Shown piece after piece: positions 1,014 through 42,257 of a stretch of DNA of 64,000 bases (position 1 is the stretch's first letter; each line of letters begins with the position of its first letter). Source of the DNA: a virus (taxonomy: Duplodnaviria; Heunggongvirae; Uroviricota; Caudoviricetes); IMG/VR virus record IMGVR_UViG_3300044638_003984. One strand, written 5' to 3'. Below the pieces are notes generated by a model that was given only the letters and a program-made list of their open reading frames with translations, had not been told where the DNA came from and ran no database searches. Position numbers and translations under genes: made by a program.

Positions 1014-1024
1014 ATATAATCTTT

Positions 1025-1101: not shown

Positions 1102-1107
1102 AAACTT

Positions 1108-1200: not shown

Positions 1201-1207
1201 AAATTTT

Positions 1208-1481: not shown

Positions 1482-1563
1482 TGGTTGCGGAGGTAGGATT
1501 TGAACCTTTTGAGACGTCCTCTTGGTTATGAGCCAAGCGAGCTGACCGCTGCTCTACTCCACA
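1482..1563 (-). tRNA. tRNA-Met/Ile2-like (anticodon CAU), 82 nt with weak T-stem
   Basis: Acceptor TGTGGAG/CTCCGCA plus A73-CCA, D-arm GAGC-AGCGGTCA-GCTC, perfect anticodon stem CTTGG/CCAAG with loop CUCAUAA; T-stem only 3 bp and an extra variable segment containing GACGTC. Confidence 0.5.
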
Positions 1564-1568
1564 ACAAT

Positions 1569-1886: not shown

Positions 1887-1904
1887 TATTCCTCACAAAT
1901 TTTA

Positions 1905-1992
1905 TGGTGGAAGCCGTGAGATTTGAACTCACAATCCCCTTGGGGAAATGGTTTTACAGACCACCGCAGCTAACCGTATCTGCCTGACTTCC
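1905..1992 (-). tRNA. tRNA-Tyr (anticodon GUA), type II
   Basis: Acceptor GGAAGTC/GGCTTCC, anticodon stem GTGGT/ACCAT with loop CUGUAAA, long variable arm with CCCC/GGGG stem, T-arm GTGAG-TTCAAAT-CTCAC, A73-CCA. Confidence 0.8.
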
Positions 1993-1993
1993 A

Positions 1994-2149
1994 TTAATCT
2001 TTTCTAAAAACAAACTCAGTACAATCGCAAGTTAAACATTTCTTTTTGGTGTTTGGTATAATTTTACCACAATCACCTATTGGATATTTATGATCTTTTC
2101 TTTCATGACCGCATATACATGGATCATATTTAGTGCAATTAACTATCAT
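1994..2149 (-). CDS. hypothetical small Cys/His-rich (zinc-ribbon-like) protein
   Basis: The ORF-track ORF 1994-2218 overlaps tRNA-Glu; trimmed to the internal Met (MIVNCTKYDPCICGHERKDH...CLTCDC). Confidence 0.35.
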   Translation of the reverse strand: MIVNCTKYDPCICGHERKDHKYPIGDCGKIIPNTKKKCLTCDCTEFVFRKD

Positions 2150-2188
2150 AGATATACTATAACGTATTTTAGTTTGCTTGTCAATATT

Positions 2189-2265
2189 TGGTATGGTCGA
2201 CGGGATTTGAACCCGCAATCCCCACCTTGAAAGGGTGGTGGCTTAACCAATTTGCCTACGACCAT
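2189..2265 (-). tRNA. tRNA-Glu (anticodon UUC)
   Basis: Acceptor ATGGTCG/CGACCAT, anticodon stem CCACC/GGTGG with loop CUUUCAA, T-arm GCGGG-TTCAAAT-CCCGT, A73-CCA. Confidence 0.75.
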
Positions 2266-2283
2266 ATATGTTTAAATATTTTT

Positions 2284-2361
2284 GGTGGCTCCGCCCGGAT
2301 TCGAACCGGGATCTTATGCTCTTCAGGCATATGCTGCATACCAATCCAGCTACACAGAGCC
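2284..2361 (-). tRNA. tRNA-Phe (anticodon GAA)
   Basis: Acceptor GGCTCTG/CGGAGCC, anticodon stem TATGC/GCATA with loop CUGAAGA, T-arm CCCGG-TTCGAAT-CCGGG, A73-CCA; D-arm pairing imperfect. Confidence 0.65.
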
Positions 2362-2459
2362 ATTAAAATTTTGCGCTTCTCAGTGGATTTCACTATAGTT
2401 CCGAATCTTGACTAGATACCTTGAGCTCAGTATCAATCGCACGTCTATCACTAAGAATT

Positions 2460-2533
2460 TGGTGGAATCTGTCAGAATCGAACTGACATCGCCTGAATGC
2501 AAATCAGGAGTTTTCCCATTAAACTAAGACCCC
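2460..2533 (-). tRNA. tRNA-Ala (anticodon UGC)
   Basis: Acceptor GGGGTCT/AGATTCC with G3:U70 wobble, D-arm GTTT-AATGGGA-AAAC, anticodon stem CCTGA/TCAGG with loop UUUGCAU, T-arm GTCAG-TTCGATT-CTGAC, CCA. Confidence 0.7.
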
Positions 2534-2538
2534 AAAAG

Positions 2539-2612
2539 TGGAGGTTGATTGTAGAATTGAACACCAGATTTTCCGTAGACAACGGAAGGTTTTACCACTA
2601 AACTAACGAACC
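2539..2612 (-). tRNA. tRNA-Asp (anticodon GUC)
   Basis: Acceptor GGTTCGT/ATCAACC, D-arm GTTT-AGTGGTA-AAAC, anticodon stem TTCCG/CGGAA with loop UUGUCUA; T-stem has 2 mismatches. Confidence 0.55.
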
Positions 2613-2629
2613 AACTTACTACATTATTT

Positions 2630-2658
2630 AGTATACTTCTTTTAGAACATTTCGTCAA
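2630..2658 (-). promoter_or_regulatory. sigma70-like promoter (TTGACG-17-TATACT) upstream of tRNA-Asp
   Basis: The reverse complement reads TTGACGaaatgttctaaaagaagTATACT. Confidence 0.5.
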
Positions 2659-2664
2659 ACTCTT

Positions 2665-2838
2665 TTACCATTTTGTTAAAGAAAAAAGAACGATACTACC
2701 ATCACGATCAATACCAAACTGCATATCTTTGAATGTAAAGAACCACACTTCAAACAGATTTGAGTATTCAAGATCTGGAATCACTTCAGATAAACCAATT
2801 TCTTGAAGAGAAGAAATTACATCGTCATTAGGTTTCAT
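2665..2838 (-). CDS. hypothetical 57-aa protein (not in ORF track)
   Basis: ATG preceded by AAGGA Shine-Dalgarno at ~7 nt; translates MKPNDDVISSLQEIGLSEVIPDLEYSNLFEVWFFTFKDMQFGIDRDGSIVLFSLTKW. Confidence 0.35.
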   Translation of the reverse strand: MKPNDDVISSLQEIGLSEVIPDLEYSNLFEVWFFTFKDMQFGIDRDGSIVLFSLTKW

Positions 2839-2858
2839 AATTATCCTTTATTATAACT

Positions 2859-2932
2859 TGGAGCACTGTGATGGAATCGAACCATCGTTAACTGTTTTGC
2901 AGACAGTTACCTAGCCTCTCGGACAACAGTGC
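2859..2932 (-). tRNA. tRNA-Cys (anticodon GCA)
   Basis: Perfect acceptor GCACTGT/ACAGTGC, anticodon stem ACTGT/ACAGT with loop CUGCAAA, T-arm GATGG-TTCGATT-CCATC, CCA. Confidence 0.75.
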
Positions 2933-2942
2933 AAAAATTGTT

Positions 2943-3017
2943 TGGTGGGATCGGTGAGGCTCGAACTCACAACTCCAGACTTAAAAGGTCTGTACTCTAC
3001 CATTGAGTTACGATCCC
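2943..3017 (-). tRNA. tRNA-Lys (anticodon UUU)
   Basis: Acceptor GGGATCG/CGATCCC, D-arm ACTC-AATGGTA-GAGT, anticodon stem CAGAC/GTCTG with loop CUUUUAA, T-arm GTGAG-TTCGAGC-CTCAC, A73-CCA. Confidence 0.8.
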
Positions 3018-3100
3018 AAAATTTCTTTCATCACTTTCACATTTGATATTCACACAAACATTGAACCAACCTGACCATCAGTTTTGGATACTTAAAATTA

Positions 3101-3186
3101 TGGAGGAGGATGATAGCATCGAACTATTATCCCTAGAGATACTACGGTTTTCAAGACCGTGCGGGGAGCCAACCCCAGCATCCTCC
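3101..3186 (-). tRNA. tRNA-Ser (anticodon UGA), type II
   Basis: Acceptor GGAGGAT/ATCCTCC, anticodon stem ACGGT/ACCGT with loop CUUGAAA, long variable arm, CCA. Confidence 0.7.
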
Positions 3187-3192
3187 AATATT

Positions 3193-3267
3193 TGGCTCCC
3201 CGGGCAGGACTCGAACCTACAACATCCTGGTTAACAGCCAAGCGCTCTACCATTGAGCTACCGAGGA
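3193..3267 (-). tRNA. tRNA-Asn (anticodon GUU)
   Basis: Acceptor TCCTCGG/CCGGGGA, D-arm GCTC-AATGGTA-GAGC, anticodon stem CTTGG/CCAGG with loop CUGUUAA, T-arm GTAGG-TTCGAGT-CCTGC, G73-CCA. Confidence 0.75.
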
Positions 3268-6603: not shown

Positions 6604-6819
6604 ATGATTCTCGGTTGGGTTATTACAAAGACTCATTCCTCTGGCGTAACAGAAGTTTACGCCAGAGATTATAAAGAATCATGTTTTGGATATTTTACGC
6701 CGAAGATTTCTGAATCTTATATCTTTCGAAATCGTTCGGCTGCTGAGTTAGAATTTAAGAATTATATAGCTATTGTTTCGGAATCATTTGAACTGGTTCC
6801 GGTAGAAGCTTATATCTAA
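6604..6819 (+). CDS. hypothetical protein (71 aa)
   Basis: ORF track; GGAG ~9 nt upstream. Confidence 0.4.
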   Translation: MILGWVITKTHSSGVTEVYARDYKESCFGYFTPKISESYIFRNRSAAELEFKNYIAIVSESFELVPVEAYI

Positions 6820-7724
6820 CTCAAGAAATTAACCCAACCTAGGATGTGTTTTTCCCAATCATAGTTCTCTCTTGCGAACTCTTGAATGTCGAGGCATTTT
6901 TTATTATATGCTTCTGGATTCTTTTGATAATATTCAATAGATTCTTTCAGAGCAGAACAATATTGATCCTCTTCAGGATAACCCATAGGAAGAACTACAC
7001 CACCACCTTTAGGTCCATAATCTTCGAAATATCCAACTGGTGTTGATAAGACTAATCTTCCTGCTGCAGCTGCTTCCATAGAAGGCAATCCAGCAGATTC
7101 TTCAATAGAAGACACTGCCAATGCATCGATTGAGTTATAATAACCTGGCATACACATCCAGTTATAGAAATTATGTTCCACTAATTTAACTTGTGGAATT
7201 TCTGTTGCAGTCTGTTTAACTAGATGACCACGTTTAATCTCTACATCGAAGAAATTCTTAGTCTCTTTCGCCCCACCATATCCTAACTTCTCAAGTTTTT
7301 CCGAAGGTTTCCTATAGAAGGAGTCGAAATGAATTCCAAAAGGAATTACATCAGGAATTCTTTCGACTCCAAATTCTGCCGCTTTATTCTTCAATACATT
7401 AGAAACTACACCAAATTTTTTAATTTGATTGTAGAAGAGATTACCGAAATCTCTTCTAGCAAGAAGCATATCCCACTGTCCATGAGCAACTGTTGCTAAT
7501 TTTTCAGGTGGAATTCCTAGTCTGTTCAGATGAACAATCGCTTCCGGATTAGTAACGAATAGATCGTAGGAGTCGTTTAATAAACGAATTTCATCAGGAG
7601 TATAGTGTTGTGTCCAATCAAGCAGATTGGCAATAATTCCATACTTATATAATTCTTTTGCTAGAGCATGATGGATCGATCCGAAGGCCCATCTGTTCTG
7701 TGTGTAGAATAATACTTTCTTCAT
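6816..7724 (-). CDS. glycosyltransferase, GT-B fold (group 1 / GT4-like)
   Basis: C-terminal SIEESAGLPSMEAAAAGRLVL (E-x7-E retaining GT motif). Confidence 0.65.
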   Translation of the reverse strand: MKKVLFYTQNRWAFGSIHHALAKELYKYGIIANLLDWTQHYTPDEIRLLNDSYDLFVTNPEAIVHLNRLGIPPEKLATVAHGQWDMLLARRDFGNLFYNQIKKFGVVSNVLKNKAAEFGVERIPDVIPFGIHFDSFYRKPSEKLEKLGYGGAKETKNFFDVEIKRGHLVKQTATEIPQVKLVEHNFYNWMCMPGYYNSIDALAVSSIEESAGLPSMEAAAAGRLVLSTPVGYFEDYGPKGGGVVLPMGYPEEDQYCSALKESIEYYQKNPEAYNKKCLDIQEFARENYDWEKHILGWVNFLS

Positions 7725-7760
7725 TATATACCTCGCAAATTCATTTTTATGTAAATAATA

Positions 7761-8405
7761 TTATTTGGTGGCTTTCCAGTTAGCAAACCATTCATGCTCT
7801 TCTTTACTTATTTTAGGTAAATTTGGATTACTTGTATTATAATCTGAACAACATGTAACTCCAAATACCCTATTATTAGGTAAACCATCAATATACCAAC
7901 AATCTGGTAAACACATATTAAACAAATAATCATCTCCATACAAAATTTGTAATTCACTTGGAATCTGAAGATAATTATTTTTCTTCATAATCATCAAACA
8001 CCCAAAACCCCAACACCGTTCATGTGCTCTTGTTAATTTGAGTGTATCTGAATTACTAAACATATTCAAACCGTATAAACCTGATTCGTGATTATCTAAT
8101 ACTGGTAATAGAGCATCAAAAATATTGGTATCAAATAAAATATCATCATTTAGAAGGCACACGTAATCGAATTTAGCTAATTTTACACCAAGATTCCAAG
8201 CGGGATTCACATAGATATTTTGTTCTTGATCTATTACGTTGATCTTCGGATTCTCTAATATTTTCCAATCAGGTGTTTTATTTTTCTTGTTATTGATAAT
8301 TATAATTTCATGTATTACATCTTGTTGTATCAGTTCAGTCAATTGGATCTCAAAACTCTGAGGAACCCACATTGTGGGTATAATGATTGAGAATTTGTTG
8401 TTCAT
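7761..8405 (-). CDS. glycosyltransferase family 2-like (GT-A)
   Basis: N-terminal FSIIIPT and an NDD (DxD-like) motif. Confidence 0.6.
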   Translation of the reverse strand: MNNKFSIIIPTMWVPQSFEIQLTELIQQDVIHEIIIINNKKNKTPDWKILENPKINVIDQEQNIYVNPAWNLGVKLAKFDYVCLLNDDILFDTNIFDALLPVLDNHESGLYGLNMFSNSDTLKLTRAHERCWGFGCLMIMKKNNYLQIPSELQILYGDDYLFNMCLPDCWYIDGLPNNRVFGVTCCSDYNTSNPNLPKISKEEHEWFANWKATK

Positions 8406-8488
8406 ATTACAGTCCTGCAAAATTTGGCCACCAAGGCGACCATCTATCTAATAAATAATACTTATTATCATGAGAGTGTGACTCTTCA

Positions 8489-8941
8489 TCATATATAAAA
8501 TGTAGTGTTTTTCTCATAATCCTCTATATAATCAGAACATATACCAATACATTTAGAAATATTGTCTTCGTAAAGTTCCGGAATAACAGCTATAGAATTA
8601 TTTATAGGCTGTTTACCTGGATACACCCAAATGAATCCTTTGGATGTTAATGTCATATCGTCCACATCATGCCAGAACCAATTAAACACGGTACTGAACA
8701 TAATATCAACTGCACTATGATTTTTGCAATGAATCCAAAGTTTATGGTTTCTTTCATATAGAAATGATAGATCAATTTCTGAATGACCAGAATCATGACC
8801 AAGAAATAACTGTGAATCATGAACCCACAAATCTACTTCTACATCGTAACCAAGATCTAATGCTCTGTCAATATAATCTGGAGTATTTTCTAGATCCCGA
8901 TTCTTTCCAGAAATGTTACCACGATGTGAAATATATATCAT
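8489..8941 (-). CDS. glycerophosphodiester phosphodiesterase (GDPD)-like protein
   Basis: N-terminal SHRGN...ENT...G-D-VEVD...HD motifs typical of the GDPD family. Confidence 0.5.
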   Translation of the reverse strand: MIYISHRGNISGKNRDLENTPDYIDRALDLGYDVEVDLWVHDSQLFLGHDSGHSEIDLSFLYERNHKLWIHCKNHSAVDIMFSTVFNWFWHDVDDMTLTSKGFIWVYPGKQPINNSIAVIPELYEDNISKCIGICSDYIEDYEKNTTFYI

Positions 8942-9621
8942 AGTCTATTCTTAAATTCTTTATTTAAATATTGTAAACAATAATCAGTTTGATATCTATT
9001 AGATTCATGATACCTCCAATCGATATTATTTTTAAATTCGACAAGATATTCTTTCTTCAAATCCAAGGTATGAAACATCAAAGCCCAACGTCTTTCCATA
9101 CCACAAGCTTGCATTTTATTTGTTGGATATTTTAACCAGTCATTAGGTATCTTATCCATAGATTTCTTGTTTATAGAAAATATTGGGCCAAAAATACCAC
9201 AATCCGGGAGCGAATTGAATGGTATTCCATCTTCAACCCAATTCTGTTGTTCTGTGGAATCATATGAATAGAAGAAATTAAATAGACCCAAAATATCTGT
9301 ATTTTGTAATCTTTCTGAAATTATTTTGAACACATTCGGATTTGTAATTCTGAGAGAATCTTGTAAGAATATGAAGTTTTTAGCCTGATAATTTCTATAT
9401 GCGTGGATATATGCACCAGAATCCCAAGAATCGTATTCTAATCTTTCAAAAATGTATCTAGGATACATATTCTCAAATTCTAAGAAACGATCTTTGAAGT
9501 CTTTATCTTTAGAATTAGTATCTATTATTAATACATCATCAGATGATAGATCACAATTATCCATATCTTGTAATATATTTGATAGACAATCAACATTATC
9601 ATGAGATGCGATTACAATCAT
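8938..9621 (-). CDS. hypothetical protein in glycan island
   Basis: ORF track; operon context. Confidence 0.45.
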   Translation of the reverse strand: MIVIASHDNVDCLSNILQDMDNCDLSSDDVLIIDTNSKDKDFKDRFLEFENMYPRYIFERLEYDSWDSGAYIHAYRNYQAKNFIFLQDSLRITNPNVFKIISERLQNTDILGLFNFFYSYDSTEQQNWVEDGIPFNSLPDCGIFGPIFSINKKSMDKIPNDWLKYPTNKMQACGMERRWALMFHTLDLKKEYLVEFKNNIDWRYHESNRYQTDYCLQYLNKEFKNRL

Positions 9622-9622
9622 A

Positions 9623-10417
9623 TTAATCTATCTTTCCAACAAAAGCCCATTCTTTATTATACCAACATCTTTCAAATTGTTCTGGATATTTTTTACGATA
9701 TTCTTCTGGATATTTCAGTGTGTCGAAAAATATATCTTGTTTATCTAGAACCAAACAATAATCGTCTCTCTGCCATCCAGATTCCCATCTTGTTTTAGCT
9801 CTACATAAACTCTGTTCGTATGATCTAAAAGAATATTGATTATGATTGAAATTATCAACAAATACACTAGGAAGACTTTGTGGGGGAACTGTTACTGAAT
9901 GTTCTTTACCATAAACATAATTCTTGTTGAATCTAAAATATCTATTTTCAGGAAAACCAGGAGCCATGAAGTATTTCATTTTAGGTTCTATCTTATTGCC
10001 CTGTTCAAATTTCCATGTATCTTTTTGGGAAGTGTGAATGAAAAAATGTCTATTTCTAATACAAATAGAATTTGATAAAGGATGATTCACATCTACATAT
10101 TCGAATAATTGTAAAACATTATTATCAGGAAATTCGTCCGGATGAAGTATCCCAACCCATTGTTTATCATTAACCAGTAACTTAGCTTGTTCCCACACAA
10201 ATCCTCTTGTTGTCGAATCATTAGAAGTTGATATTACATTTTTATCACGTTCATAAAATATAACTTCATTAAATTTTGAACAAATTTCTTTACCTTCTAA
10301 ATCAGAAGAACCGTCTAATACCAAAATCTTATCGAAATAGTGAGTAATCTTAGTGAGATATTCTTCTAGAATATCATTTTCGTCTTTCATTATAAGAATA
10401 CCTAACTGTCTATCCAT
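9623..10417 (-). CDS. putative GT-A-like glycosyltransferase
   Basis: ILVLDGSSD DxD-like motif near the N-terminus; operon context. Confidence 0.4.
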   Translation of the reverse strand: MDRQLGILIMKDENDILEEYLTKITHYFDKILVLDGSSDLEGKEICSKFNEVIFYERDKNVISTSNDSTTRGFVWEQAKLLVNDKQWVGILHPDEFPDNNVLQLFEYVDVNHPLSNSICIRNRHFFIHTSQKDTWKFEQGNKIEPKMKYFMAPGFPENRYFRFNKNYVYGKEHSVTVPPQSLPSVFVDNFNHNQYSFRSYEQSLCRAKTRWESGWQRDDYCLVLDKQDIFFDTLKYPEEYRKKYPEQFERCWYNKEWAFVGKID

Positions 10418-11072
10418 ATGTTATTCCTTTCAAATTATAAATTAAGTCATTATCTATGATAAAATCTACACCATCGAATTTTAGATATTTATCAAAAATA
10501 TCTTCGGCATTAACAACATCTTTAATTAATTCTTCTGTATAAAACGATTCATCCGGAACACATCTAGACATAGTTTCATAATCACCATAGAAAAATATAT
10601 CACTGGGAAACCCATTTATTGGAGATCGTTTTCCATAAATTTTTCCAGTTTGTATTTCTTTTCTAAGATCTATATTAATAGAATTTAAATCGAATCTACT
10701 TCTAACAACAACATCATATGATGTATTTGTGTAACTAATACATTGTTTAATCTTTTTGAACATCAATAGAGTATTCAATGCATTAACTGAGTGTGGAGAA
10801 TTAGGCAATATTATATCAAAAGAAGACAAATAATTGTATTTAGATCTATCTTCTATATCGAAAAATTTTGGATTATAATTAGCATTTAAGATATCAGAAT
10901 CAATTAAATCACATTCTTCACGTTCACCTTTCCAAAAAGAGCAATCTATTCCCGATTTAGTCCATGTAGATAAAAAGAAATCTGATTTTAATTCAGAAAA
11001 ATATACACTCGGCTGACTTAATTCATTCTGAAATTCTCTTACGTGACCTGAAATACAATATGCAATTTTCAT
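10410..11072 (-). CDS. hypothetical protein in glycan island
   Basis: ORF track. Confidence 0.45.
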   Translation of the reverse strand: MKIAYCISGHVREFQNELSQPSVYFSELKSDFFLSTWTKSGIDCSFWKGEREECDLIDSDILNANYNPKFFDIEDRSKYNYLSSFDIILPNSPHSVNALNTLLMFKKIKQCISYTNTSYDVVVRSRFDLNSINIDLRKEIQTGKIYGKRSPINGFPSDIFFYGDYETMSRCVPDESFYTEELIKDVVNAEDIFDKYLKFDGVDFIIDNDLIYNLKGITYG

Positions 11073-11665
11073 ATTCTTTTGAAGTGTACGTCCGCTTCTT
11101 TATTAACATTATCAGGAATAACTTGACAAGAAAATCCATTATCATTTAAGAACTGCACAATATCTTCTACTCTATTAGAAGTTCCTGTATATAATTCTAC
11201 AGTATATGATCCTTCACACTTACCTTCTCTTACTATGTTAATTCTATTTCCTAAACTCTGCAATACTCTGAAATCGTTTCCTTGCGCATCTATCCACAAA
11301 TAATCTATATCTAATATAGATTCACTTTCTATTATAGAATCCAATCTCTTCTTTTCTACTAGACAAGACTCAGTGAAACTGAAATCTGGTCTGTTTTCCC
11401 AAAGTTCATGAATATTTTCACTGAATTTATATAGAGAAGAACATCCCCAATCTCCACTACCAGCTATATTAAATTCTGATATTCCTTCTTCAACATCTAT
11501 CGCATAAGGATAAATTTTAATATTTGAATAATGTTTGAAATTATTCGTTAGATCTGAGAATAATTTTGGTGTTGGTTCGAAAGCGAAGACAACATTATTC
11601 TCATTATCAGCAAATCTTTTCGTGTCTAGACCTAAATTTGCTCCGACTTCAAATATTATATTCAT
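11069..11665 (-). CDS. FkbM-family methyltransferase
   Basis: N-terminal FEVGANLGLDT...VFAFEPTP pattern of FkbM SAM-dependent methyltransferases. Confidence 0.55.
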   Translation of the reverse strand: MNIIFEVGANLGLDTKRFADNENNVVFAFEPTPKLFSDLTNNFKHYSNIKIYPYAIDVEEGISEFNIAGSGDWGCSSLYKFSENIHELWENRPDFSFTESCLVEKKRLDSIIESESILDIDYLWIDAQGNDFRVLQSLGNRINIVREGKCEGSYTVELYTGTSNRVEDIVQFLNDNGFSCQVIPDNVNKEADVHFKRI

Positions 11666-13016
11666 AATTCGTTAAAAAGGAATTCAAATCTTCTGGAGTT
11701 CCCAAACCCCACATTTCATTTATGTTAAAAATTTTAAATTTCTTTTTGTCTTTTAGTGCTTCATTGAAGACCGGACAAACGTAAAATTCGTTATTAACCC
11801 TAATATTATTAGATATCATTTGTTCAGTATATTTAACATAATCTGAACCCTTAGACCAATAATATATTCCTGCGGTAGCAATATCAGATATCGGATTCTT
11901 TTCTGCAACCTCTGTCACAAAACCATATTCATCTGTTTTAACAAAAGACCATTTTGGATGTGTTGCATTGAATGTAATAATTCCACCATCTATGGAAGAT
12001 TCTTGCATCTTATACATAAATTCATTAGAATTCCATTCAACAAATTGATCCGAATTCGCCATCAATAGAGGTTCGTCGTTATCTATGAATTCTTTTGCTA
12101 ATAGAGTCGTACAGGCTGCACCTTCTGTTAATCCATCTACTTCCACAATTTTACAGCCAGGAGTAATTAGTTTCAACATGGAATCTAGATTATACTTCTC
12201 TCGATGTTTCTTTTGGATAACATATATGAATCTCCCATCTACATTCAAATTTTCTACAACAACTTGAATCATAGGTTTACCATTTACATCAATTAATGGT
12301 TTCGGAAAGGTATATCCTGCTTGTTCAAATCTGGAACCAGCTCCAGCCAATGGTATCAAAATATTCATAGTATTACCTTGCCATTTTGGCACAAATTTAT
12401 TTGTCTTTGTTTTTAACAAAATATTATCAAGTATTAAATCTTCAGGTGAATTAACTCTCAATACATTAGCTCCTGATCTATAAGCTGCCAATAAACCTGT
12501 TGGTGAATCTTCAATTATTAAAGTTTCTTCAGGTAAAAATTTAAATGATTGCATAGCTTTCCAATATATTTCAGGATAAGGCTTTGGATATCTCACATCT
12601 TCATTAGATATGATGATATCCATATAATGGATTATTCCAATTTTTTTAAGAACAGATTCTATTGTGTTTCTTATTGAATTAGAACAACATCCTAAAATGA
12701 ATGATTGGTGTTTTAATGAATTAAATATTTGAATTAATTTATCTGAAGTATGTAATTTCGACAAATGTTTTTCAATTAATTCTTGTTTCTTTAACCAAAT
12801 AGATTTGTGAAGATTTGGATCTAGATATTTTTCTTTGGTTAATAGATCTAATTTGTCGTAAGTTGTTAATCCATCATATTTCGAATGATGTTCGGATAAT
12901 GATATAGTTTTATCAGAATCCGAATAACATTCTATAGCTTCATTTAGACAACTGAAATGCATTTCTTTAGTGTCTACTAAAACTCCATCTAAATCAAATA
13001 ATATCAATTTAATCAT
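11649..13016 (-). CDS. bifunctional HAD-superfamily phosphatase / sugar-phosphate nucleotidyltransferase
   Basis: N-terminal LILFDLDGVLVDT (HAD motif I); C-terminal ILIPLAGAGSRF...KPLIDVNGKPMI (NTP-transferase glycine-rich loop). Confidence 0.6.
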   Translation of the reverse strand: MIKLILFDLDGVLVDTKEMHFSCLNEAIECYSDSDKTISLSEHHSKYDGLTTYDKLDLLTKEKYLDPNLHKSIWLKKQELIEKHLSKLHTSDKLIQIFNSLKHQSFILGCCSNSIRNTIESVLKKIGIIHYMDIIISNEDVRYPKPYPEIYWKAMQSFKFLPEETLIIEDSPTGLLAAYRSGANVLRVNSPEDLILDNILLKTKTNKFVPKWQGNTMNILIPLAGAGSRFEQAGYTFPKPLIDVNGKPMIQVVVENLNVDGRFIYVIQKKHREKYNLDSMLKLITPGCKIVEVDGLTEGAACTTLLAKEFIDNDEPLLMANSDQFVEWNSNEFMYKMQESSIDGGIITFNATHPKWSFVKTDEYGFVTEVAEKNPISDIATAGIYYWSKGSDYVKYTEQMISNNIRVNNEFYVCPVFNEALKDKKKFKIFNINEMWGLGTPEDLNSFLTNYEYNI

Positions 13017-13037
13017 ATTACCAAACTATATTTATCC

Positions 13038-14210
13038 TTATGCTTGTGGAGCTGTCTTAATCCCTGCTGGATAATAACGATTCAACCATTCTAATTCATC
13101 TGTATGTTCGTCTTCCGTATACCAACCTTTACCAGTGTAAACATTATGAACCATGGTGAAATAATGCTCATACATTCTGGCAACACGGTCCAGTGTGAAG
13201 TTTGCCATCGCCCAATCTCTACAATCTTGTGGATTGATCTTGTCAATATTCTTAGCCGCCCAAGAGAATTCTGAGAATGAACGACAACGATAACCAGTTA
13301 CTCCGTGTAAATTATTCTCTGCGTGTGAACCCCAATCTGTTGTGATAATAGGACAACCTGCAAAAAGAGCTTCGATAGATGCTCCACCAAAAGGTTCGTT
13401 GAACATAGAAGGAAGCCAAAATCCTTTTGCTTTTGACAGGACTCGTTTTCTATCTTCAGAATTTAGATATCCGATAACTTCAATTTGACCAGGAATTTCT
13501 TTATAACCATGTTCTTCAAGAGAACCTTGTCCTGCGATCTTCAATTTCAACCCAAGTTTTTCACAGACTTGATAGGCAACATCAATACCCTTTCCAGGAT
13601 AGATTCTACCCATGAATAGAAGATAATCATCTTTCTCTTTTGAAAATTCAAATTCATCTGGATCGAAATAATTAGGAATCACAGCATGATACCAGGATTC
13701 TTTGCACTGACCAACAGCTTCATGACCACCAACAGCAGAACGAATGGCATATGATTCATAGATTCGCCAAGGAGAGAATTGGCCTGTAGCATATCCAATA
13801 CCAGGCTCTACGATAATCATATCGTCTACAAACGCATCACATACTGGTTTATTACCCCATCCCCAGAAAGGTAGAATGAAATCGTTTGGTTGTTTTCTCT
13901 TTTGAATTTCTCTAATAGCGTTCTTATAGAAAGTTTGATAAGCATGGTCATTCATATCAAACTTAAAGAAATTCTTGCGCCAATCAAAATCACCATATGC
14001 TTTCTTAAAATCATCATTGGTAACAACCGTAACATGTTCCGTACACTCTAGTTCGGAATCTTCGTGACCATAATGAATAACTTCGTGTCCACGTGAGACC
14101 ATCATTTTCCCGAATTTGCGTGTCTTTTGTCCGTACGCACAAGCCGAAAATTCTGCATTAGTTACTACATGTGGTGGTGGTAGAATATGAAATCTAAACT
14201 TTTGACTCAT
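13038..14210 (-). CDS. glycosyltransferase group 1 (GT4-like)
   Basis: GRIYPGKGID...KIAGQG and EPFGGASIEALFAGCPII motifs typical of retaining GT-B enzymes. Confidence 0.65.
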   Translation of the reverse strand: MSQKFRFHILPPPHVVTNAEFSACAYGQKTRKFGKMMVSRGHEVIHYGHEDSELECTEHVTVVTNDDFKKAYGDFDWRKNFFKFDMNDHAYQTFYKNAIREIQKRKQPNDFILPFWGWGNKPVCDAFVDDMIIVEPGIGYATGQFSPWRIYESYAIRSAVGGHEAVGQCKESWYHAVIPNYFDPDEFEFSKEKDDYLLFMGRIYPGKGIDVAYQVCEKLGLKLKIAGQGSLEEHGYKEIPGQIEVIGYLNSEDRKRVLSKAKGFWLPSMFNEPFGGASIEALFAGCPIITTDWGSHAENNLHGVTGYRCRSFSEFSWAAKNIDKINPQDCRDWAMANFTLDRVARMYEHYFTMVHNVYTGKGWYTEDEHTDELEWLNRYYPAGIKTAPQA

Positions 14211-14226
14211 TATAACTCCTAATTCA

Positions 14227-14255
14227 ATTATAATATACTTGAGTATTTAGGTCAA
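14227..14255 (-). promoter_or_regulatory. sigma70-like promoter TTGACC-17-TATAAT for the glycan island, overlapped by palindrome GGTCAAAATTGACC
   Basis: The reverse complement reads TTGACCtaaatactcaagtatatTATAAT, then RBS AGGAG and the ATG at 14210. Confidence 0.5.
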
Positions 14256-14386
14256 AATTGACCAAATAAATTATACATGAGATAGAAATTTTCTAATAAT
14301 CTCTAACCCACTATCCATCTACTATGATTGACTAGTAAATGTCTAATCATATTTATGCACTTTAAAAGTACATAATTATTCCAGCG

Positions 14387-14959
14387 TTATACTCCAAATG
14401 CGATCTTATATAAATCAATTTTAGTTGTAGATCCTGCTGCGGCGGATGCAATTAATCTTATATTTCCACCAGTGATATTGGTTGTATAAGTTACTAGAGG
14501 ATTTGCTGAAGTATGTACTCTAGAGTATTCGGATATATAAGCTGTTGTTCCATTATGGATCAATAGAATTTCAGAACATTGGAAATTTGTGAGGTATGAA
14601 ACTTGTAATACATATTTCACTGTTCTGAATGTAGATATAGGCGATTCATCGATAACAGTTTCTGTAACACCAATATTTGTGATTCTTTTACCAGAAATTA
14701 ATGCTGGATCAATTGAAAGTTGTCCAGTCATTGTTAGTGTATTAGTTTCTTTGACCCATGTTAATCCTGTTGCCCCAACTACAGATGTATTATCTAGATA
14801 CAACAATTCACGATTAGATCCAGAAAATGTTCCTGTCGCTCCAGTAAAACCAGTCGCACCTATTCCTGTAGAACCTTGATTACCTATTGTGCCCTGAGTT
14901 CCTATTGATGCAACTTTTACAGTCGTTGATGATGGTATTGTAACTGTTATATTTGACAT
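14387..14959 (-). CDS. virion structural protein with short collagen-like G-X-Y stretch (neck/tail-associated?)
   Basis: [24 protein letters not shown] motif; directly follows the gp13-gp14-gp15 genes on the same strand. Confidence 0.45.
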   Translation of the reverse strand: MSNITVTIPSSTTVKVASIGTQGTIGNQGSTGIGATGFTGATGTFSGSNRELLYLDNTSVVGATGLTWVKETNTLTMTGQLSIDPALISGKRITNIGVTETVIDESPISTFRTVKYVLQVSYLTNFQCSEILLIHNGTTAYISEYSRVHTSANPLVTYTTNITGGNIRLIASAAAGSTTKIDLYKIAFGV

Positions 14960-15308: not shown

Positions 15309-16334
15309 TTAATATTCCGTAATAGTTGTATTTATTGTATAAACATCATCTCTATCTGCTGTAGATGGATTGACGGAAACTGTTGTTGTTACTAATTTTT
15401 GTGTAGTATCTAATTCGTAAAAATTAGTAACAGCATTTTTAATAATCTTAGCATCAGAAATTGGTGGATAAATCCAAGAGTTTGCAACAAATGTTAACGT
15501 CCATGTTAAAATTCTATCATCTTCTACTGATCCTTCATATTCATCTGATTGTGAAACTGATGTTAAAGTAATTTGCACATCCCTCTTCATATCAATAGAT
15601 GGTATATCGTTCAGAGTAATGGTATAAAAAGGAGTGAAATATGGAAGAATCTGTTCTATAATTTGTAGACCATCATCAATATATTTAACAAATAAATTAA
15701 CAGTAAATTCAAAATTATAAGGAACTGGATTATACTGTCCAATATATGTTGTTTTTAACGTAGAAATACCGGAACCTGGTGCGATTAAATCAATTGCTGT
15801 TCCGGCTTCAGCTAAAGATTTAGAAGAAGCGAGTTTAATTGTATTGTTAGTCGTCTTAATTGTGTAATAAGTTCCACCATCAAAAAATCCTGTTGCTCCA
15901 ATTGAATTTCCAGATCCTTTAATATAAGTTACTGATTGACCAGTTCTTAAATTATGTGACGGGATAGTTATGGTATTTTCACTTACATTAATGGCACTTG
16001 AAGCATTAAACGTCAAATCATTTTGTGGAACAAATATATTCTTTCCAATAGTTTGTTGTTTTCTTGTTGAATCATATGACATAGAAGTTAACTCAAACGA
16101 TAATCTTGGAAGAATAACTTTTACATCAACATAATTATCTCTTCTCTGAACATCTTGTTGTTGTAACATCGTGATGGTTTTATCTGCAGATGCGTATGCA
16201 AGTGGAACTTTAATGGTTTTTTCTATCGATCCATCTTGATTATATCTTAAGACTCTTATATTATTAAATAGAGAACCAAAAGCTGCAGTCAGATTTCTAA
16301 TTGTAGAGAAATAAAAGTTTGATGAATTTAACAT
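15309..16334 (-). CDS. T4 gp15-like tail sheath stabiliser/tail completion protein
   Basis: N-terminal FGSLFNNIRVLRYNQDGS...KVPLAYAS and QIIEQILPYFTPFYTITLNDIPSIDMKRDVQITL...WIYPP blocks align with the remembered T4 gp15 sequence; follows the gp13 and gp14 homologues. Confidence 0.6.
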   Translation of the reverse strand: MLNSSNFYFSTIRNLTAAFGSLFNNIRVLRYNQDGSIEKTIKVPLAYASADKTITMLQQQDVQRRDNYVDVKVILPRLSFELTSMSYDSTRKQQTIGKNIFVPQNDLTFNASSAINVSENTITIPSHNLRTGQSVTYIKGSGNSIGATGFFDGGTYYTIKTTNNTIKLASSKSLAEAGTAIDLIAPGSGISTLKTTYIGQYNPVPYNFEFTVNLFVKYIDDGLQIIEQILPYFTPFYTITLNDIPSIDMKRDVQITLTSVSQSDEYEGSVEDDRILTWTLTFVANSWIYPPISDAKIIKNAVTNFYELDTTQKLVTTTVSVNPSTADRDDVYTINTTITEY

Positions 16335-16357
16335 TTAATACACATATTCCTTTATAA

Positions 16358-16996
16358 TTAATTATTGATATTAGAAAAAGGATTTGACTCTGTGAAGTCT
16401 ATTATAATATCGGATTTAGATTGTATTTTATCGTTCTTAGCAAATGGATCACCAATTCCTGTAGCACCATCATTATTATAAGTTACATTAACTTCATCTG
16501 CTTCAGTACCAGTGTCAATAGTTTCATTAGAATATTTAAATACTTCGCAAGTTAGAATAAAATATTGTCTCGCCCCAAGAGGAAATAGAGGATTCTTATC
16601 ATCAACATATTTAATTTCGAAAAGGGATCTTGCTGTAGGATACATTATAAGATCACCTTCGACTGGAAGAACCTTTCCTACAATAGATTCAAATCTTTCT
16701 CTAGAAACAATTAATCTTAATCTATCACCTAGAGTGAATCCAAATTTAGAAATTAAAGCTCCGTCCCCAAGAAATGCTTCATAATTCTCTATGTACATTT
16801 CTATTACAAAATTTCTCTCGAATTTAGATATATAATCTTCACGATATAATTCATCAACATTAACAATAGTTCTTGGTAAATAAACAAAATCACATCCTGC
16901 AATTTGTATAGATTCATTTACCAAAACTTGGAGAAGATTCTGTTCTTCTGTAGAACCTATACCACGACCGGATTGAAAAAATTTATTAGTTGGCAT
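16358..16996 (-). CDS. T4 gp14-like neck protein
   Basis: Position between the gp13 and gp15 homologues; size 212 aa. Confidence 0.5.
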   Translation of the reverse strand: MPTNKFFQSGRGIGSTEEQNLLQVLVNESIQIAGCDFVYLPRTIVNVDELYREDYISKFERNFVIEMYIENYEAFLGDGALISKFGFTLGDRLRLIVSRERFESIVGKVLPVEGDLIMYPTARSLFEIKYVDDKNPLFPLGARQYFILTCEVFKYSNETIDTGTEADEVNVTYNNDGATGIGDPFAKNDKIQSKSDIIIDFTESNPFSNINN

Positions 16997-16999
16997 GAT

Positions 17000-17764
17000 T
17001 TATCCAATAAATAGATCCAACGGTAATTGTAAATCTTTAGTGAGTCTTGTTTCTAATTTTTCTATTTCAGTTATAGCTTCTGAATATATTGCATCACCAT
17101 TAATTGTTATACCACCTGGTAAATTCATATTTCCAAATTTCTTAAGATTCTCGCCCCATTGTCTTTTAATTAGAGCTGTAGCATATTCCTTAAGAAATTC
17201 GTCAGCCCAAATATCGTTAAAAGTATTGATATCTAATTTCTTGTAAATTTTCAAAACAATATTGGATGTTTTCTCTTTTAATAAAGAGAGCGGTTCGTTG
17301 AATCTTATTCTATTTGTTTTTCTATTAAAGTTAAAAGAATTTAATGGTGATAAAGACATCTGCATAGTGGCAAGATATGATTTCATAGAATCTAAATAAG
17401 CTAAATTATTTCCTATAATATTTGATGTATTATAGAAATCGTTCATATAGAACTGATATTGTGCATTAAATAGATCGCCACTACCAACTCCTGTAGAAAC
17501 GTCATTACCGACAGGAAGTGCAGATATTACAGAAAATACTTTTTCATCTAGAGTAATATATCCATTAGTTACATCCGTATTAGTTATAGGAACAATAAGA
17601 TAATCTTCTTCAACGCCATCAAAATGATAATCAAAATATTTCGTTATGGCATCATCGATTCTATCATCAACTTGTTCTTCTGCAACATTTATTTCTATTA
17701 CAGGAAAACCTAGTCTTCTTAAACAGTAATCGGAAAATTGTTCTCTAGTTGTTGGCGTTGCCAT
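17000..17764 (-). CDS. T4 gp13-like neck protein
   Basis: CLRRLGFPVIEINV...YFDYHFDG and C-terminal LPGGITINGDAIYSEAI...LPLDLFIG match T4 gp13 blocks. Confidence 0.8.
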   Translation of the reverse strand: MATPTTREQFSDYCLRRLGFPVIEINVAEEQVDDRIDDAITKYFDYHFDGVEEDYLIVPITNTDVTNGYITLDEKVFSVISALPVGNDVSTGVGSGDLFNAQYQFYMNDFYNTSNIIGNNLAYLDSMKSYLATMQMSLSPLNSFNFNRKTNRIRFNEPLSLLKEKTSNIVLKIYKKLDINTFNDIWADEFLKEYATALIKRQWGENLKKFGNMNLPGGITINGDAIYSEAITEIEKLETRLTKDLQLPLDLFIG

Positions 17765-26222: not shown

Positions 26223-29200
26223 ATGACAACTCTGAATTTCAATACATCATCGAATTCAATAGTCGATTCATCAATATCAATAACATCCCATAATTTAATA
26301 ACTGGAGTTAATGTAAGATATCAAAATGGCTCTGACCCATCACCATATAATATTGGTTTGACAGATGGAACCGAATATTATGTTGTAGTTAAAAATACAA
26401 ATACAATTTATCTGACATCTAATTTAGATGATATACAATTCTTTTTGAGTTCATTTGATGATTTAATTAATTTGAATGAAAATTCCATTTATATCGATGA
26501 ACACAATTTTTCTACTGGTGATAGAGTTATATATTCTTCTAATGAGGGAATTGATATTGGTGGATTAACTTCTTGGCAAATCTATTATGTAATATCGATT
26601 GATGAAAACAAAATAAAATTAGCAACAAATTATTCGAACGCATTGAATAATATTTCTGTTGATTTAACGAATTTGGGTGAAGGATATACTCATTTAATAT
26701 TTAAATATATTGAGTTATCACCTTCTTCTCTTCCAGGACAAACACATTCATTAGAATACAATTATATTGAAATTGGTGGAGGAGGAGTCTCAGGATCAAC
26801 TGGATTTACAGGATCTACTGGGTTGACAGGAGCTACAGGTCAATTCGGATCAACTGGATTTACTGGTGCAACTGGATTTACAGGATCAACTGGATTTACA
26901 GGATCTACTGGGTTGACAGGAGCTACAGGTCAATTCGGATCAACTGGATTTACTGGTGCAACTGGATTTACAGGATCAATTGGATTTACAGGATCTACTG
27001 GATTTACAGGATCAACTGGATTTACTGGTGCAACTGGATTTACAGGATCAATTGGATTTACAGGATCTACTGGATTTACAGGATCAACTGGATTTACAGG
27101 ATCAACTGGATTTACAGGATCTACTGGATTTACTGGTGCAACTGGATTTACAGGATCAACTGGATTTACAGGATCAACTGGATTTACAGGATCTACTGGA
27201 TTTACTGGTGCAACTGGATTTACAGGATCAACTGGATTTACAGGATCTACTGGATTTACAGGATCAACTGGATTGACAGGAGCTACAGGTCAATTCGGAT
27301 CAACAGGATTTACTGGTGCAACTGGGCCGATTGGCGGTTCAAATACACAAGTTTTATATAATTCTAGCGGAGTCGCCACAGGTTCTGCCAATTTTACATT
27401 TGATGGAACTAGGGCAACCATTGCTGCGTTGACGGTAGATACAAGTACATTGTATGTTGATGCAACAAATGATAGAGTTGGTATTGGGACAACGAGTCCT
27501 GCGGTTATTTTAGATCTTGGTGGTGGAACAAATTTTGTTAATGGTGTAACATCTTATACTGGTATTTCACCAACTGCAAAAACAATACAAATATATGATG
27601 CCACACAATCTTTCTTAAATTTAGTCAGCGGTGTTGACACCGCTGGTGCAGTGCTAGGTGGAATATTTTTCAGTAGAAGTCTTGGTCAAGGCGATGCTCA
27701 CTACAATGTTGCTGGAATAACTGCTTTACAAAATAGTACAGGAACAATTTCTGGTGGGGAATTATTATTTTATACAAAGGCTAACTCTTCACCTACAGAG
27801 AAAATGAGAATCAATGTAACAGGTGACATTATTTTCGGAAATGGGGAATCGAGTGCTACAACTACAGCAGCTACTTTAAGAGGACCAGCTAGAACAGGAA
27901 CAAATGCTGCTGGTTCTAACTTAACTATTGCTACTGGCAATGGAACTGGAACGGGTGGTAGCGGATCTCTAATATTTCAAACTGCTTCTGCCGGATCTTC
28001 TGGGACAACGGCAAATACTTTAAGTGAAAGAATGAGAATCGACTCCTCCGGCAACGTCGGTATTGGAACAGCGAGTCCAAAGCAATTGCTGCATGTAGCT
28101 GGGCAAGGATTGTTTACAACTAGTACATCAAGTTATGACCCAGGTGATTCAGCCGGATCTGCGGTAAGAATCGGTTACAATACTGGTGGAGATTATGGAT
28201 ATGTAATATCCAACAATACTGGCGTAGCCAGTAAACGACTTCTTGTTGGCGGATCTACTGTTGAATTTCTAGTTAGCGGCGCAGAAAAAGGCCGTTTTAA
28301 CTCTGATGGGAAGTTTGGTATTGGAACGACGAGTCCATTAACCACACTACATGTAGGTGCTGTTGCTGCCCTCGACGGCGATGTCACTCTTAGTGCTGGC
28401 ACTAACATGGTGTATGCCACTGCTACTAGTGGGGCGGCGCTGACCTGGAATGCAACCACCAATGGTGGATATGCAAACACCATCATGGCTAGATTACAGC
28501 CTCGCCAGGACACTGGCGCAAACTACTGCTTGGATGTATTCTGCGGTACCTGGAACAACAACAACTCTGCTGGCACTGCTATTGCTACATTCTCAAGTTC
28601 TGGCAATGTCGGTATTGGAACGCAAAGTCCATCTAAGAAAGGTTCCGTAGGGACTGCCGGGACGGACGGCTTTGCGATCCAGTATTCCCCCACCTCGCAA
28701 GAAGTTTTTTCAGTTACGGCAAACACAGGGACTGGCGAGACAAAATTCTTTTGCGATACCAATTACTTCCAGACGTTCTACACGAATAACTCTGAAAAGA
28801 TGCGTGTTAATACTGATGGATACCTTCTTGTTGGATACGCTTCTTCAAACGGATCATACAAACTCCAGGTTAACTCTCAGATATTTGCTACTAACGCAAC
28901 CATCGCTACCTCTGATGGACAATACAAGCAGAACGTTGTTTCGTTGCAGTCTGGTTTGGACGTGATAGAAAAGCTCAATCCAGTCACTTTTAACTGGAAG
29001 GATCACGATATTCACAACTTTGAGAGTGGTACTCAGGTTGGCTTCATCGCTCAGGAAGTTAAGGAGGTTCTTGCGGATACTCCGTACCTGGATTCAGTCA
29101 TCAAGCGCAACGAGCTAAAGCGAGACGATGGATCTGTTGAAGAATTCTACGGCATGGCGGATGCCAAGCTGATCCCCGTATTGGTCAAAGCAATTCAAGA

Positions 29201-29240
29201 ACTGAAGGCAGAGATTGACCTTCTGAAAGCAGGAAATTAA
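26223..29240 (+). CDS. collagen-like tail fibre protein with C-terminal intramolecular chaperone (peptidase S74-like) domain
   Basis: ~170 residues of (G-S/A-T-G-F/L-T) triplet repeats; C-terminal [11 protein letters not shown]...[15 protein letters not shown] resembles endosialidase/tail-fibre self-cleaving chaperone domains. Confidence 0.7.
26790..27340 (+). repeat. tandem 9/18-bp repeats (ggatttacaggatcaact units) encoding collagen-like G-X-Y triplets
   Basis: About 30 near-identical 18-bp units with higher-order ~96-bp periodicity. Confidence 0.8.
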
Positions 29241-42256: not shown

Positions 42257-42257
42257 G

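Follow-up and report, generated by a model that had tools for sequence, protein, structure and literature searches.

What does a marine phage build with nine sugar-processing genes that lie beside its virion structural genes? The question is raised by a 64,000-nt stretch of the Caudoviricetes record IMGVR_UViG_3300044638_003984 (the whole of this stretch is referred to as the window), in which an earlier note had described a glycan-modification island and had named host surface polysaccharide, virion glycosylation and DNA hypermodification as possible targets without choosing between them. Its nine co-oriented genes are indeed present in this uncultured phage: nine open reading frames (ORFs) occupy positions 6816-14210 of the minus strand and are called g1 to g9 below, in the order in which they succeed each other. 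Together they form a cassette for glycan assembly that varies between strains and sits at the neck-proximal edge of the host-recognition region. The GT-B glycosyltransferase (GT) genes g1 and g9 are its conserved anchors, and what lies between them is a swappable insert made up of a precursor module (g2 and g7), four transferases of GT-A type (g4, g5, g6 and g8) and the FkbM methyltransferase g3. The three targets can now be ranked, with the virion placed tentatively before the host envelope and DNA hypermodification as the weakest of the three.

Conserved anchors and an exchanged centre

A scan for relatives of g1 returned 80 viral loci. In 27 of these a relative of g9 is co-oriented with the g1 relative, at a distance between 9 nt and 6.8 kb (5.3 kb in the window). 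In three loci (L111-L113) the stretch from gp13 through g1 matches the window at ~99% identity, and everything from the first position of g9 onward at ~98%; between g1 and g9 their sequence is unrelated to that of the window. For L113 this middle segment codes for a glycerophosphodiesterase of reduced length (mini-GDPD), a RuBisCO-like protein, a CmcI-type methyltransferase, a stand-alone nucleotidyltransferase, several GT2 enzymes and a GT-D-like protein. A partial exchange is seen in a more distant relative (L003), where the backbone is 74% identical and yet g1-g2 reach 93% and g6-g9 96% nucleotide identity, with g3-g5 replaced by another methyltransferase and two genes of no assigned function. 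The island is not syntenic between relatives, as it differs in those with ~99% identical flanks, in L003 and in the relative L004, and it is a recombining mosaic whose ends are conserved, much like bacterial O-antigen loci.

The RuBisCO-like gene of L113 (IMGVR_UViG_3300034061_002643, positions 9629-10819) lies beside the genes for the mini-GDPD, the CmcI-type methyltransferase and the stand-alone nucleotidyltransferase and encodes a 396-aa protein resembling the large chain (PF00016, E=2.8e-34). It may hint at a building block derived from a pentulose phosphate.

Predicted enzymes of the island

The positions of all genes are provided in Table 1. The enzyme classes proposed in the earlier note (two GT1 enzymes, a GT2-like enzyme, an FkbM methyltransferase and a fusion of HAD and nucleotidyltransferase domains) are borne out by Pfam, phrog and TIGR matches. 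Both anchors carry an EX7E motif, which for g1 was read directly from the sequence. The best relatives of g1 in the PDB are glucosylsucrose synthase (7fg9, E=2e-21) and a pteridine glucosyltransferase (5zer), and the GT1-like C-terminal half of g9 stays under the Pfam cut-off (weak matches to PF13692 and PF00534).

Table 1. Window coordinates of the island genes and of the features discussed with them
Feature	Position	Strand	Basis or remark
g1: GT4-type GT-B glycosyltransferase, 390 aa, upstream anchor	13038..14210	-	PF00534 (Glycos_transf_1) 67 bits; phrog_3408 514 bits
g2: HAD-IA phosphatase (residues 1-~200) fused to sugar-1-phosphate nucleotidyltransferase (~217-450)	11649..13016	-	HAD_2 112 bits; NTP_transferase 45 bits
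g3: FkbM-family methyltransferase, 198 aa	11069..11665	-	PF05050 60 bits; TIGR01444 73 bits
g4: GT-A-fold transferase, unnamed family, 220 aa	10410..11072	-	structure model
g5: GT2-like, borderline Glyco_tranf_2_4, 264 aa	9623..10417	-	PF13704 26.8 bits (cut-off 27.5), E=7.5e-6
g6: divergent GT2-like, 227 aa	8938..9621	-	no Pfam match of its own; PF00535 in homologues
g7: truncated GDPD-fold phosphodiesterase, 150 aa, conserved partner of g2	8489..8941	-	fold and family comparison
g8: GT2 glycosyltransferase, 219 aa, alternative ATG at 8405	7761..8420	-	PF00535 (Glycos_transf_2) 38 bits
g9: GT-B (GT1-like) protein, 302 aa, downstream anchor	6816..7724	-	phrog_18799 E=3e-60; phrog_2170
Sigma-70-like promoter candidate, TTGACC-17-TATAAT, then AGGAG and the g1 ATG	14227..14255	-	11 of 12 consensus positions
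Inverted repeat GGTCAA-AA-TTGACC, with the -35 hexamer as one arm	14250..14263	.	single copy in window, not significant
190-aa ORF with short Gly-X-Y run, between a 112-aa gene and g1	14387..14959	-	in ~99% relatives, absent from 74-90% relatives
Neck genes gp15, gp14, gp13	15309..17764	-	phrog_227, phrog_460, phrog_211; boundary of host-recognition cluster
Collagen-like fibre, 1005 aa, C-terminal Peptidase_S74 chaperone domain, outside island	26223..29240	+	63 G-X-Y triplets in one unbroken run, Thr at Y in 54

The HAD domain of g2 carries the core motifs of its family (DLDGV..DT, a Ser motif, KP and EDS, in an alignment to 1lvh-type chains), and the nucleotidyltransferase half has an uncharacterised Vibrio protein (4evw) as its best PDB relative. 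A beta-phosphoglucomutase feeding the second half of the fusion was considered for the HAD domain. Beta-phosphoglucomutase binds the second phosphate of its bisphosphate intermediate through Lys45 and Arg49 of the cap; the equivalent positions in g2 are Asp and Thr. Since these distal-phosphate residues are missing and the scores lie far under the family cut-offs (77 against 189 bits for the NCBIfam model), we reject the mutase and read the domain as a phosphatase.

For g4 a profile built from 23 relatives gave no match in the PDB, and the GT-A fold is assigned by the structure model only. A weak WavE label on a neighbouring gene in locus L068, together with fusions of GDPD and WavE domains, had suggested a WavE-family protein; this was dropped after neither BLASTP against two such fusions nor Pfam at E<=5 gave a match. 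No homologue of g5 is present in any fetched locus. Of the 62 homologue clusters of g6, seven match PF00535; for three the source gives the name 'glycosyltransferase involved in cell wall biosynthesis'.

The catalytic residues of g7 (H6, R7, E18, N19, E35, D37, H49 and D50) are invariant in 32 sequences and align to those of the GDPD enzyme 7e0v, although no Pfam match is obtained even at E<=5. Only ~133 residues align, and with 150 aa against 218-330 aa for the solved enzymes g7 is best described as a truncated barrel. The GDPD call of the earlier note therefore stands for the catalytic motifs and the fold; a complete barrel and a Pfam GDPD match are lacking.

No transmembrane-like segment is found in any of the nine proteins (the highest 19-residue Kyte-Doolittle mean is 1.09), and all nine are predicted to be soluble. 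Taken together with the gene assignments, the island thus comprises six transferases, one methyltransferase and a two-gene precursor module.

A conserved pair of nucleotidyltransferase and mini-GDPD

The two genes of the precursor module keep together in phages as well as in cellular polysaccharide loci. A scan for relatives of g2 returned 65 viral loci in which the HAD-nucleotidyltransferase fusion is conserved, and 66 loci were analysed. A g7 relative occurs on the strand of g2 in 57 of these 66 (directly adjacent in 20, within 1 kb in 34); the other seven island genes are sporadic. Similar tendencies are observed outside phages: when one-genome-per-species prokaryotic contigs were scanned for g7 relatives, 39 loci were obtained, and a nucleotidyltransferase (with or without the HAD half) adjoins the g7 homologue in 37. 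On the complete chromosome of Methylophilaceae LSUCC0401 the pair is part of a polysaccharide cluster with the order rmlB-rmlD-rmlA-rmlC-GT2-[g2][g7]-epimerase-Wzx-GT2.

The g7 family, for which there is no Pfam model, comprises 2,676 clusters when grouped at 90% identity and 2,833 representatives when grouped at 50%, to be read as a lower bound (at least 2,800 cluster representatives), and nearly all members are 140-160 aa long. The pair occurs in bacteria, in phages and in one contig binned with an archaeon. Rare fusions within the family (proteins P0145-P0268) join the domain to GT61, WavE, Methyltransf_11/_24 and sulfotransferase-like domains, partners that build or tailor glycans.

The tie of g7 to a nucleotidyltransferase points to a biosynthetic and not a scavenging role, and as the catalytic residues of a phosphodiesterase are kept, g7 most likely supplies or trims a phosphorylated precursor. 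CDP-glycerol, CDP-choline, an NDP-pentose and an NDP-hexose (NDP, nucleoside diphosphate) were each considered as the product of the pair, and specific support was obtained for none. The glycerol-phosphate-linked polymer suggested in the earlier note has no basis other than the GDPD fold, and neither a CDP-glycerol enzyme nor a TagF-type polymerase is present. A literature search for a described polysaccharide pathway combining a nucleotidyltransferase with a GDPD found nothing relevant.

Position in the phage genome

The source genome is that of a T4-like marine myovirus, in which gp13, gp14, gp15, gp18, gp19, gp20, gp23 and the terminase were identified, together with further backbone genes in the window (primase, RNR, ThyX, sheath, tube, portal, prohead protease and scaffold). 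Its capsid protein is nearest to that of Pelagibacter phage HTVC008M (63% identity), followed by the Methylophilales Melnitz phages (62%) and cyanomyophages (58-59%). With megablast the island gave no match to 50,697 phage records, and 24 kb of backbone gave only short matches of ~70% in the same collection, which holds no close relative.

The island starts two small genes past gp15, directly downstream of gp13-gp14-gp15 and in the same orientation as these neck genes; its opposite end faces convergent small genes and a tRNA array. In pelagimyophage and cyanomyophage genomes a large non-syntenic island bordering gp14, rich in tail fibres and glycosyltransferases, has been named the 'host recognition cluster' (PMC7029224). 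Gene clusters of lipopolysaccharide (LPS) type have been known in cyanomyophages since P-SSM2 (PMC1079782), and are still interpreted as cell-wall modification genes (PMC12801897). As the published non-syntenic islands occupy exactly the same part of the genome, the island is assigned to this known class: it is an ordinary example of the hypervariable glycan/LPS island of marine T4-like myophages, whose function is putative.

Gene spacing, promoter candidate and inverted repeat

From g1 to g9 the gaps between successive ORFs are +21, -17, -4, -8, +1, -4, +68 and +36 nt, and g1 is preceded by an intergenic space of 176 nt. There the minus strand reads GGTCAATTTTGACC-TAAATACTCAAGTATAT-TATAAT-TGAATTAGGAGTTATA-ATG, which contains the promoter candidate described as a consensus promoter in the earlier note. 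It is one of two sites with 11 of 12 consensus positions in a scan of 11 kb, and the sole intergenic one. In the region as a whole, promoter-like sites are as frequent as in shuffled sequence (59 found, against 59.8 +/- 7.9 expected), and in L003 the -10 element and the Shine-Dalgarno sequence are kept and the -35 element is not.

The 'palindrome' in which the -35 element had been placed is an inverted repeat with 6-nt arms (GGTCAA/TTGACC) around a 2-nt centre, and differs from its reverse complement at 2 positions. The repeat does overlap the -35 element and is absent from three relatives (L003, L004 and L063). These also lack a ~700-bp insertion (14251-14955) with the 190-aa ORF, at whose junction the repeat lies exactly. 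Being specific to this genome and located at an insertion junction, the repeat is no conserved part of the island's regulation. We likewise rejected it as a recurring operator (1 occurrence against 0.63 expected with up to 2 mismatches, and no conservation). With promoter-like sites at chance level and the repeat missing from relatives, a single promoter driving all nine genes is plausible and no more than that.

No terminator-like site was found downstream of g9, whose stop codon overlaps a convergent gene (6604-6819). In this AT-rich genome, putative motifs of the T4 late type (TATAAATA/NATAAATA) precede gp13, gp23 and g2, with TATAAATA at a distance of 23 nt from gp13. They perform better than CTAAATA, which was dropped as a late-promoter motif because only 4 of its 18 copies precede genes. 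In L004 and L063 just ~35 nt separate g1 from the preceding structural gene, so there the island is a continuation of the operon of late structural genes. The two small ORFs upstream of g1 have no homology to those upstream of the homologue in cyanophage ACG-2014f.

A possible route to a glycan on the virion fibres

From the observed enzyme classes, the solubility, the coupling of g2 with g7 and the cassette architecture a pathway can be proposed. In the heptose pathway a HAD phosphatase and a nucleotidyltransferase convert a bisphosphate to a 1-phosphate, which is then activated. The island might follow the same 'bisphosphate -> 1-phosphate -> NDP-sugar' logic of GmhB/HddC and of phage AfhF/AfhE: g7 and the HAD domain would deliver a sugar- or polyol-1-phosphate, and the nucleotidyltransferase domain would activate it to an NDP-derivative. 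The AfhF/AfhE pair completes the NDP-sugar pathway of arabinosylating phages in this manner (PMC13326640). In the cytoplasm, the six transferases would go on to make a short oligosaccharide, to be O-methylated by the FkbM enzyme.

As acceptor of this oligosaccharide we tentatively favour the phage's own virion fibre proteins, above all the Thr-rich collagen-like fibres. Of the 80 loci with a g1 homologue, 28 have a collagen-like ORF within 6 kb of it, with 1 such case among 62 loci that have g2 only (p=1.5e-7), and in ACG-2014f and S-CAM7 the g1 homologue is surrounded by tail-fibre genes, collagen-repeat genes and the gene of a 2OG-Fe(II) oxygenase. In the window itself the 1005-aa fibre is a candidate for O-glycosylation, and the 190-aa ORF a candidate small fibre that might also accept sugar. 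Another short G-X-Y run is found in a 139-aa ORF (36467-36886). Proteins with at least six transmembrane-like segments occur near the module in 14 of 39 cellular loci and in 0 of the 66 from phages (Fisher p=1.6e-7). The lack of membrane proteins, the proximity of g1 to collagen-like genes and the G-X-Thr fibre favour an acceptor in the cytoplasm, and specifically the virion fibres. The virion would then bear a glycan coat whose structure changes with cassette exchange between strains. Autonomous glycosylation of virions has precedents in large DNA viruses (PMC4691112, PMC7019647) and in mycobacteriophages (PMC11256854; Freeman 2023, as far as it is cited in PMC12801897, reference 61).

With more reserve this may be extended to marine T4-like phages in general. 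They could conceivably glycosylate their own Thr-rich collagen-like fibres in the cytoplasm by means of a cassette bracketed by two GT-B genes, with inner genes that recombine between strains and draw on a widespread two-gene pathway (nucleotidyltransferase and mini-GDPD) to a putative NDP-activated building block, also used in bacterial surface polysaccharides.

Several points weigh against the virion as target. We know of no glycoprotein demonstrated for any marine T4-like phage. The association with collagen-like genes may just reflect the position of g1 in the tail-fibre region, and the closest solved relatives of g1 glycosylate small molecules and not proteins. An early-type sigma-70-like promoter candidate precedes g1 in the window. 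Cellular homologues of g2 and g7 sit in Wzx-type surface-polysaccharide clusters, showing that exported polysaccharides are the normal workplace of these enzymes. Finally, the island contains no kinase for the bisphosphate route, and the substrates of g2 and g7 are putative. Because the evidence consists of associations and not of proof, the virion is preferred with caution only.

A separate observation concerns the two cyanophage genera (11085-11678 in the ACG-2014f locus, L002; 8975-9571 in the S-CAM7 locus, L109), where the g1-type gene has the oxygenase gene beside it and genes for very long collagen-repeat proteins before it. By analogy, oxygenase and g1-type gene resemble a possible hydroxylase and glycosyltransferase pair for collagen-like fibres.

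Alternative targets

Remodelling of the host envelope is a serious alternative, which we nonetheless consider doubtful. Here the soluble transferases would modify undecaprenyl-phosphate-linked intermediates of O-antigen, capsule or LPS core at the cytoplasmic face; export would be left to the host flippase, polymerase and ligase, and the new surface would block superinfection or the adsorption of progeny to infected cells and debris. The GT families of the island are those typically seen in the synthesis of LPS and capsules, the Methylophilaceae pair lies within an rml/Wzx polysaccharide cluster, domains of the g7 family are fused to WavE domains of LPS synthesis, and the sigma-70-like promoter candidate would permit early expression. 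Against this, none of the 66 phage islands holds an initiating transferase, flippase, polymerase, ligase or any polytopic membrane protein (in contrast to the 14 cellular loci mentioned above), and host Wzx and Wzy usually accept just the repeat unit of their own pathway. The late structural operon extends into the island in relatives, a timing too late for superinfection exclusion. To our knowledge, the characterised systems of phage O-antigen conversion (gtrABC, Oac and the polymerases of D3 and epsilon15) all include membrane proteins, which also counts against this target. It is still the standing interpretation for the islands of cyanomyophages and pelagimyophages (PMC1079782, PMC7029224, PMC12801897).

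Hypermodification of DNA, in which an NDP-sugar and the GT-B/GT-A enzymes would glycosylate a hydroxylated pyrimidine and so block host nucleases, is improbable. It is true that the T4-like phages RB69 and DLP3 arabinosylate 5-hydroxycytosine with a HAD phosphatase, a nucleotidyltransferase and several GT-B enzymes (PMC13326640), that the solved relatives of g1 (7fg9/8x3q and 5zer/5ze7) are the top fold matches reported for putative DNA glucosyltransferases of Rhizobium phage RL38J1, and that glycosyltransferase clusters in metaviromes sometimes lie near structural genes (10.1101/2023.12.21.572611). However, no ThyA-family hydroxylase or hydroxymethylase, TET/JBP dioxygenase, DNA methyltransferase, dCTPase or dNMP kinase was detected among the scanned ORFs (at least 90 aa, in a 64-kb window that is part of the genome), even though the window does contain a nucleotide-metabolism block (RNR, ThyX and dCMP deaminase). 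The ThyX, dCMP-deaminase-family and deoxyribosyltransferase-like proteins listed in the earlier note were all recovered (20207-20890, with an RHRxxxxxxxS motif; 44122-44541; and 44582-45229, Nuc_deoxyri_tr2). ThyX is the only gene of thymidylate-synthase type and lies 6 kb from the island, whereas hypermodification pathways are normally clustered. Furthermore, g1 has no match to Rhizobium or Escherichia phage genomes at E<=1e-5, six transferases and a sugar methyltransferase surpass any known DNA glycan, and the cellular homologues of the core module belong to polysaccharide loci.

Least probable of all is a soluble glycoside (an oligosaccharide resembling a compatible solute, or a glycosylated cofactor) that would adjust host physiology in a long latent period. 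The pathways to glucosylglycerol, sucrose and mannosylglycerate classically pair a HAD phosphatase with a glycosyltransferase, and all nine proteins are predicted to be soluble. Among solved structures, those nearest to g1 are glucosylsucrose synthase (7fg9; PMC9909042) and UDP-glucose:tetrahydrobiopterin glucosyltransferase, both of them small-molecule enzymes of cyanobacteria. Six transferases and the swapping of cassettes at strain level nevertheless suit a variable surface structure better than a metabolite under purifying selection; the island is located among structural genes, and the cellular homologues of the module adjoin Wzx-type exporters.

Other features of the window

ARAGORN reports an array of 17 tRNA genes on the minus strand (762-3267), with unusual calls for Ile-TAT, a 91-nt Asn-ATT and two Pro-TGG. 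A separate tRNA on the plus strand (52327-52401) has the anticodon CTA, which reads the amber stop codon; TAG is the stop codon of 9 of the 62 genes, including g4 and g9 of the island. Two NUMOD3-motif proteins resembling homing endonucleases are encoded on the plus strand (137-748 and 40428-41237), the second directly past gp23.

Genes for a ClpP-family protease, an SPFH/Band-7 protein and a UvdE UV-endonuclease adjoin the capsid module on the minus strand (41505-44137). Next to them on the same strand (44122-47457) lies a block of dCMP-deaminase-family, Nuc_deoxyri_tr2, PRPP-synthetase-like and NAMPT genes, which looks like a salvage block for nicotinamide adenine dinucleotide (NAD) and nucleotides. 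The region 47457-49347 has no convincing long ORF and is of unusual composition; at 48001-49000 the G+C content is 0.43, the GC skew +0.28 and the AT skew -0.15. Further genes on the plus strand encode a 724-aa protein with DUF5824 and a weak cytidylyltransferase-like region (53933-56107), and a 303-aa protein with an N-terminal Acb1 anti-CBASS domain (58854-59765; PF23474, E=9e-29).

Significance

The sugar-gene islands of marine T4-like phages have been labelled 'LPS genes' since 2005, and their target is still putative. The anchor-and-cassette structure, the conserved pair of nucleotidyltransferase and mini-GDPD, and phage versions without membrane steps go beyond what the searchable literature holds. 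Phage versions systematically lack the membrane steps of the bacterial versions of the module, are located in the fibre and neck block and are exchanged between near-identical strains, which sharpens the question of the target; whether it is virion or host is now directly testable. If the virion is the target, glycan coats would be an overlooked layer of host-range and antigenic variation of phages in the ocean. With glycosylated fibres, glycan structure, beyond fibre sequence, would be a fast-evolving determinant of host range, stability or recognition by grazers and immune systems. If it is the host envelope, a lytic phage would rewire the assembly of O-antigen from the side of the cytoplasm, likewise without a published report. 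The pair itself represents a large family whose product could be identified by simple enzymology.

Comparison with known systems

With the host-recognition and LPS islands of P-SSM2, S-SCSM2R and S-CAM9 the island shares the T4-like marine backbone, the position abutting gp13-15, the lack of synteny between relatives and the richness in glycosyltransferases and NDP-sugar genes (PMC7029224, PMC1079782, PMC12801897). The published host recognition cluster is bordered by gp14 and the VrlC gene; here the border at gp13-15 is found, and the far side consists of convergent small genes and tRNAs, with no VrlC gene seen, although no search aimed at one was made. S-CAM9 has the HAD-nucleotidyltransferase fusion as well (54% identity), but its related island is located elsewhere, near hli/psbA genes. 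The full gene set is unmatched in any fetched locus (zero homologues for g5, two for g6), and neither the g1/g9 anchor pair nor the g2-g7 core module is described in the three papers cited.

Patterns are similar in bacterial Wzx/Wzy clusters for O-antigen and capsule: these have the same module of nucleotidyltransferase and mini-GDPD (41-62% identity), GT2/GT4 genes, methyltransferases, a low G+C content and conserved flanks around a variable centre. They differ in that all 66 phage loci lack an initiating phosphoglycosyltransferase, flippase, polymerase, chain-length regulator and ligase, and in that the phage cassette lies inside a block of virion structural genes. Phage O-antigen conversion by gtrABC/Oac differs by membrane-bound GtrA/GtrB/type-specific Gtr proteins or a polytopic acetyltransferase, which the island does not have. 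Compared with GDPD enzymes such as TM1621, GlpQ and the C-terminal domain of phage K gp155, g7 is shorter, has no Pfam GDPD match and forms a separate family.

The clusters for arabinosylation or glucosylation of DNA in RB69, DLP3 and RL38J1 likewise combine a HAD phosphatase, a nucleotidyltransferase and several GT-B enzymes in a T4-like genome (PMC13326640). Their 5-hydroxy- or 5-hydroxymethyl-pyrimidine synthase, dCTPase and nucleotide kinase were not found in the window, while the island additionally has GT-A enzymes and a sugar methyltransferase.

Virus-autonomous glycosylation of virions, as in the capsid glycans of chloroviruses, the fibrils of mimivirus and the capsids and tails of mycobacteriophages, also relies on soluble glycosyltransferases of the virus, a sugar methyltransferase and NDP-sugar supply beside structural genes, and does without export across a membrane (PMC4691112, PMC7019647, PMC11256854; Freeman 2023, to the extent that PMC12801897 cites it). 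In contrast to these systems, the island belongs to a phage of a marine Gram-negative host and is known from its genes alone, and its enzymes are not detectably orthologous. For the acceptor, the 54 G-X-Thr triplets among the 63 of the window's fibre offer an analogy, and no more than that, to the BclA protein. BclA of Bacillus anthracis is itself a collagen-like G-X-Thr fibre, and carries O-linked oligosaccharides that end in a methylated sugar.

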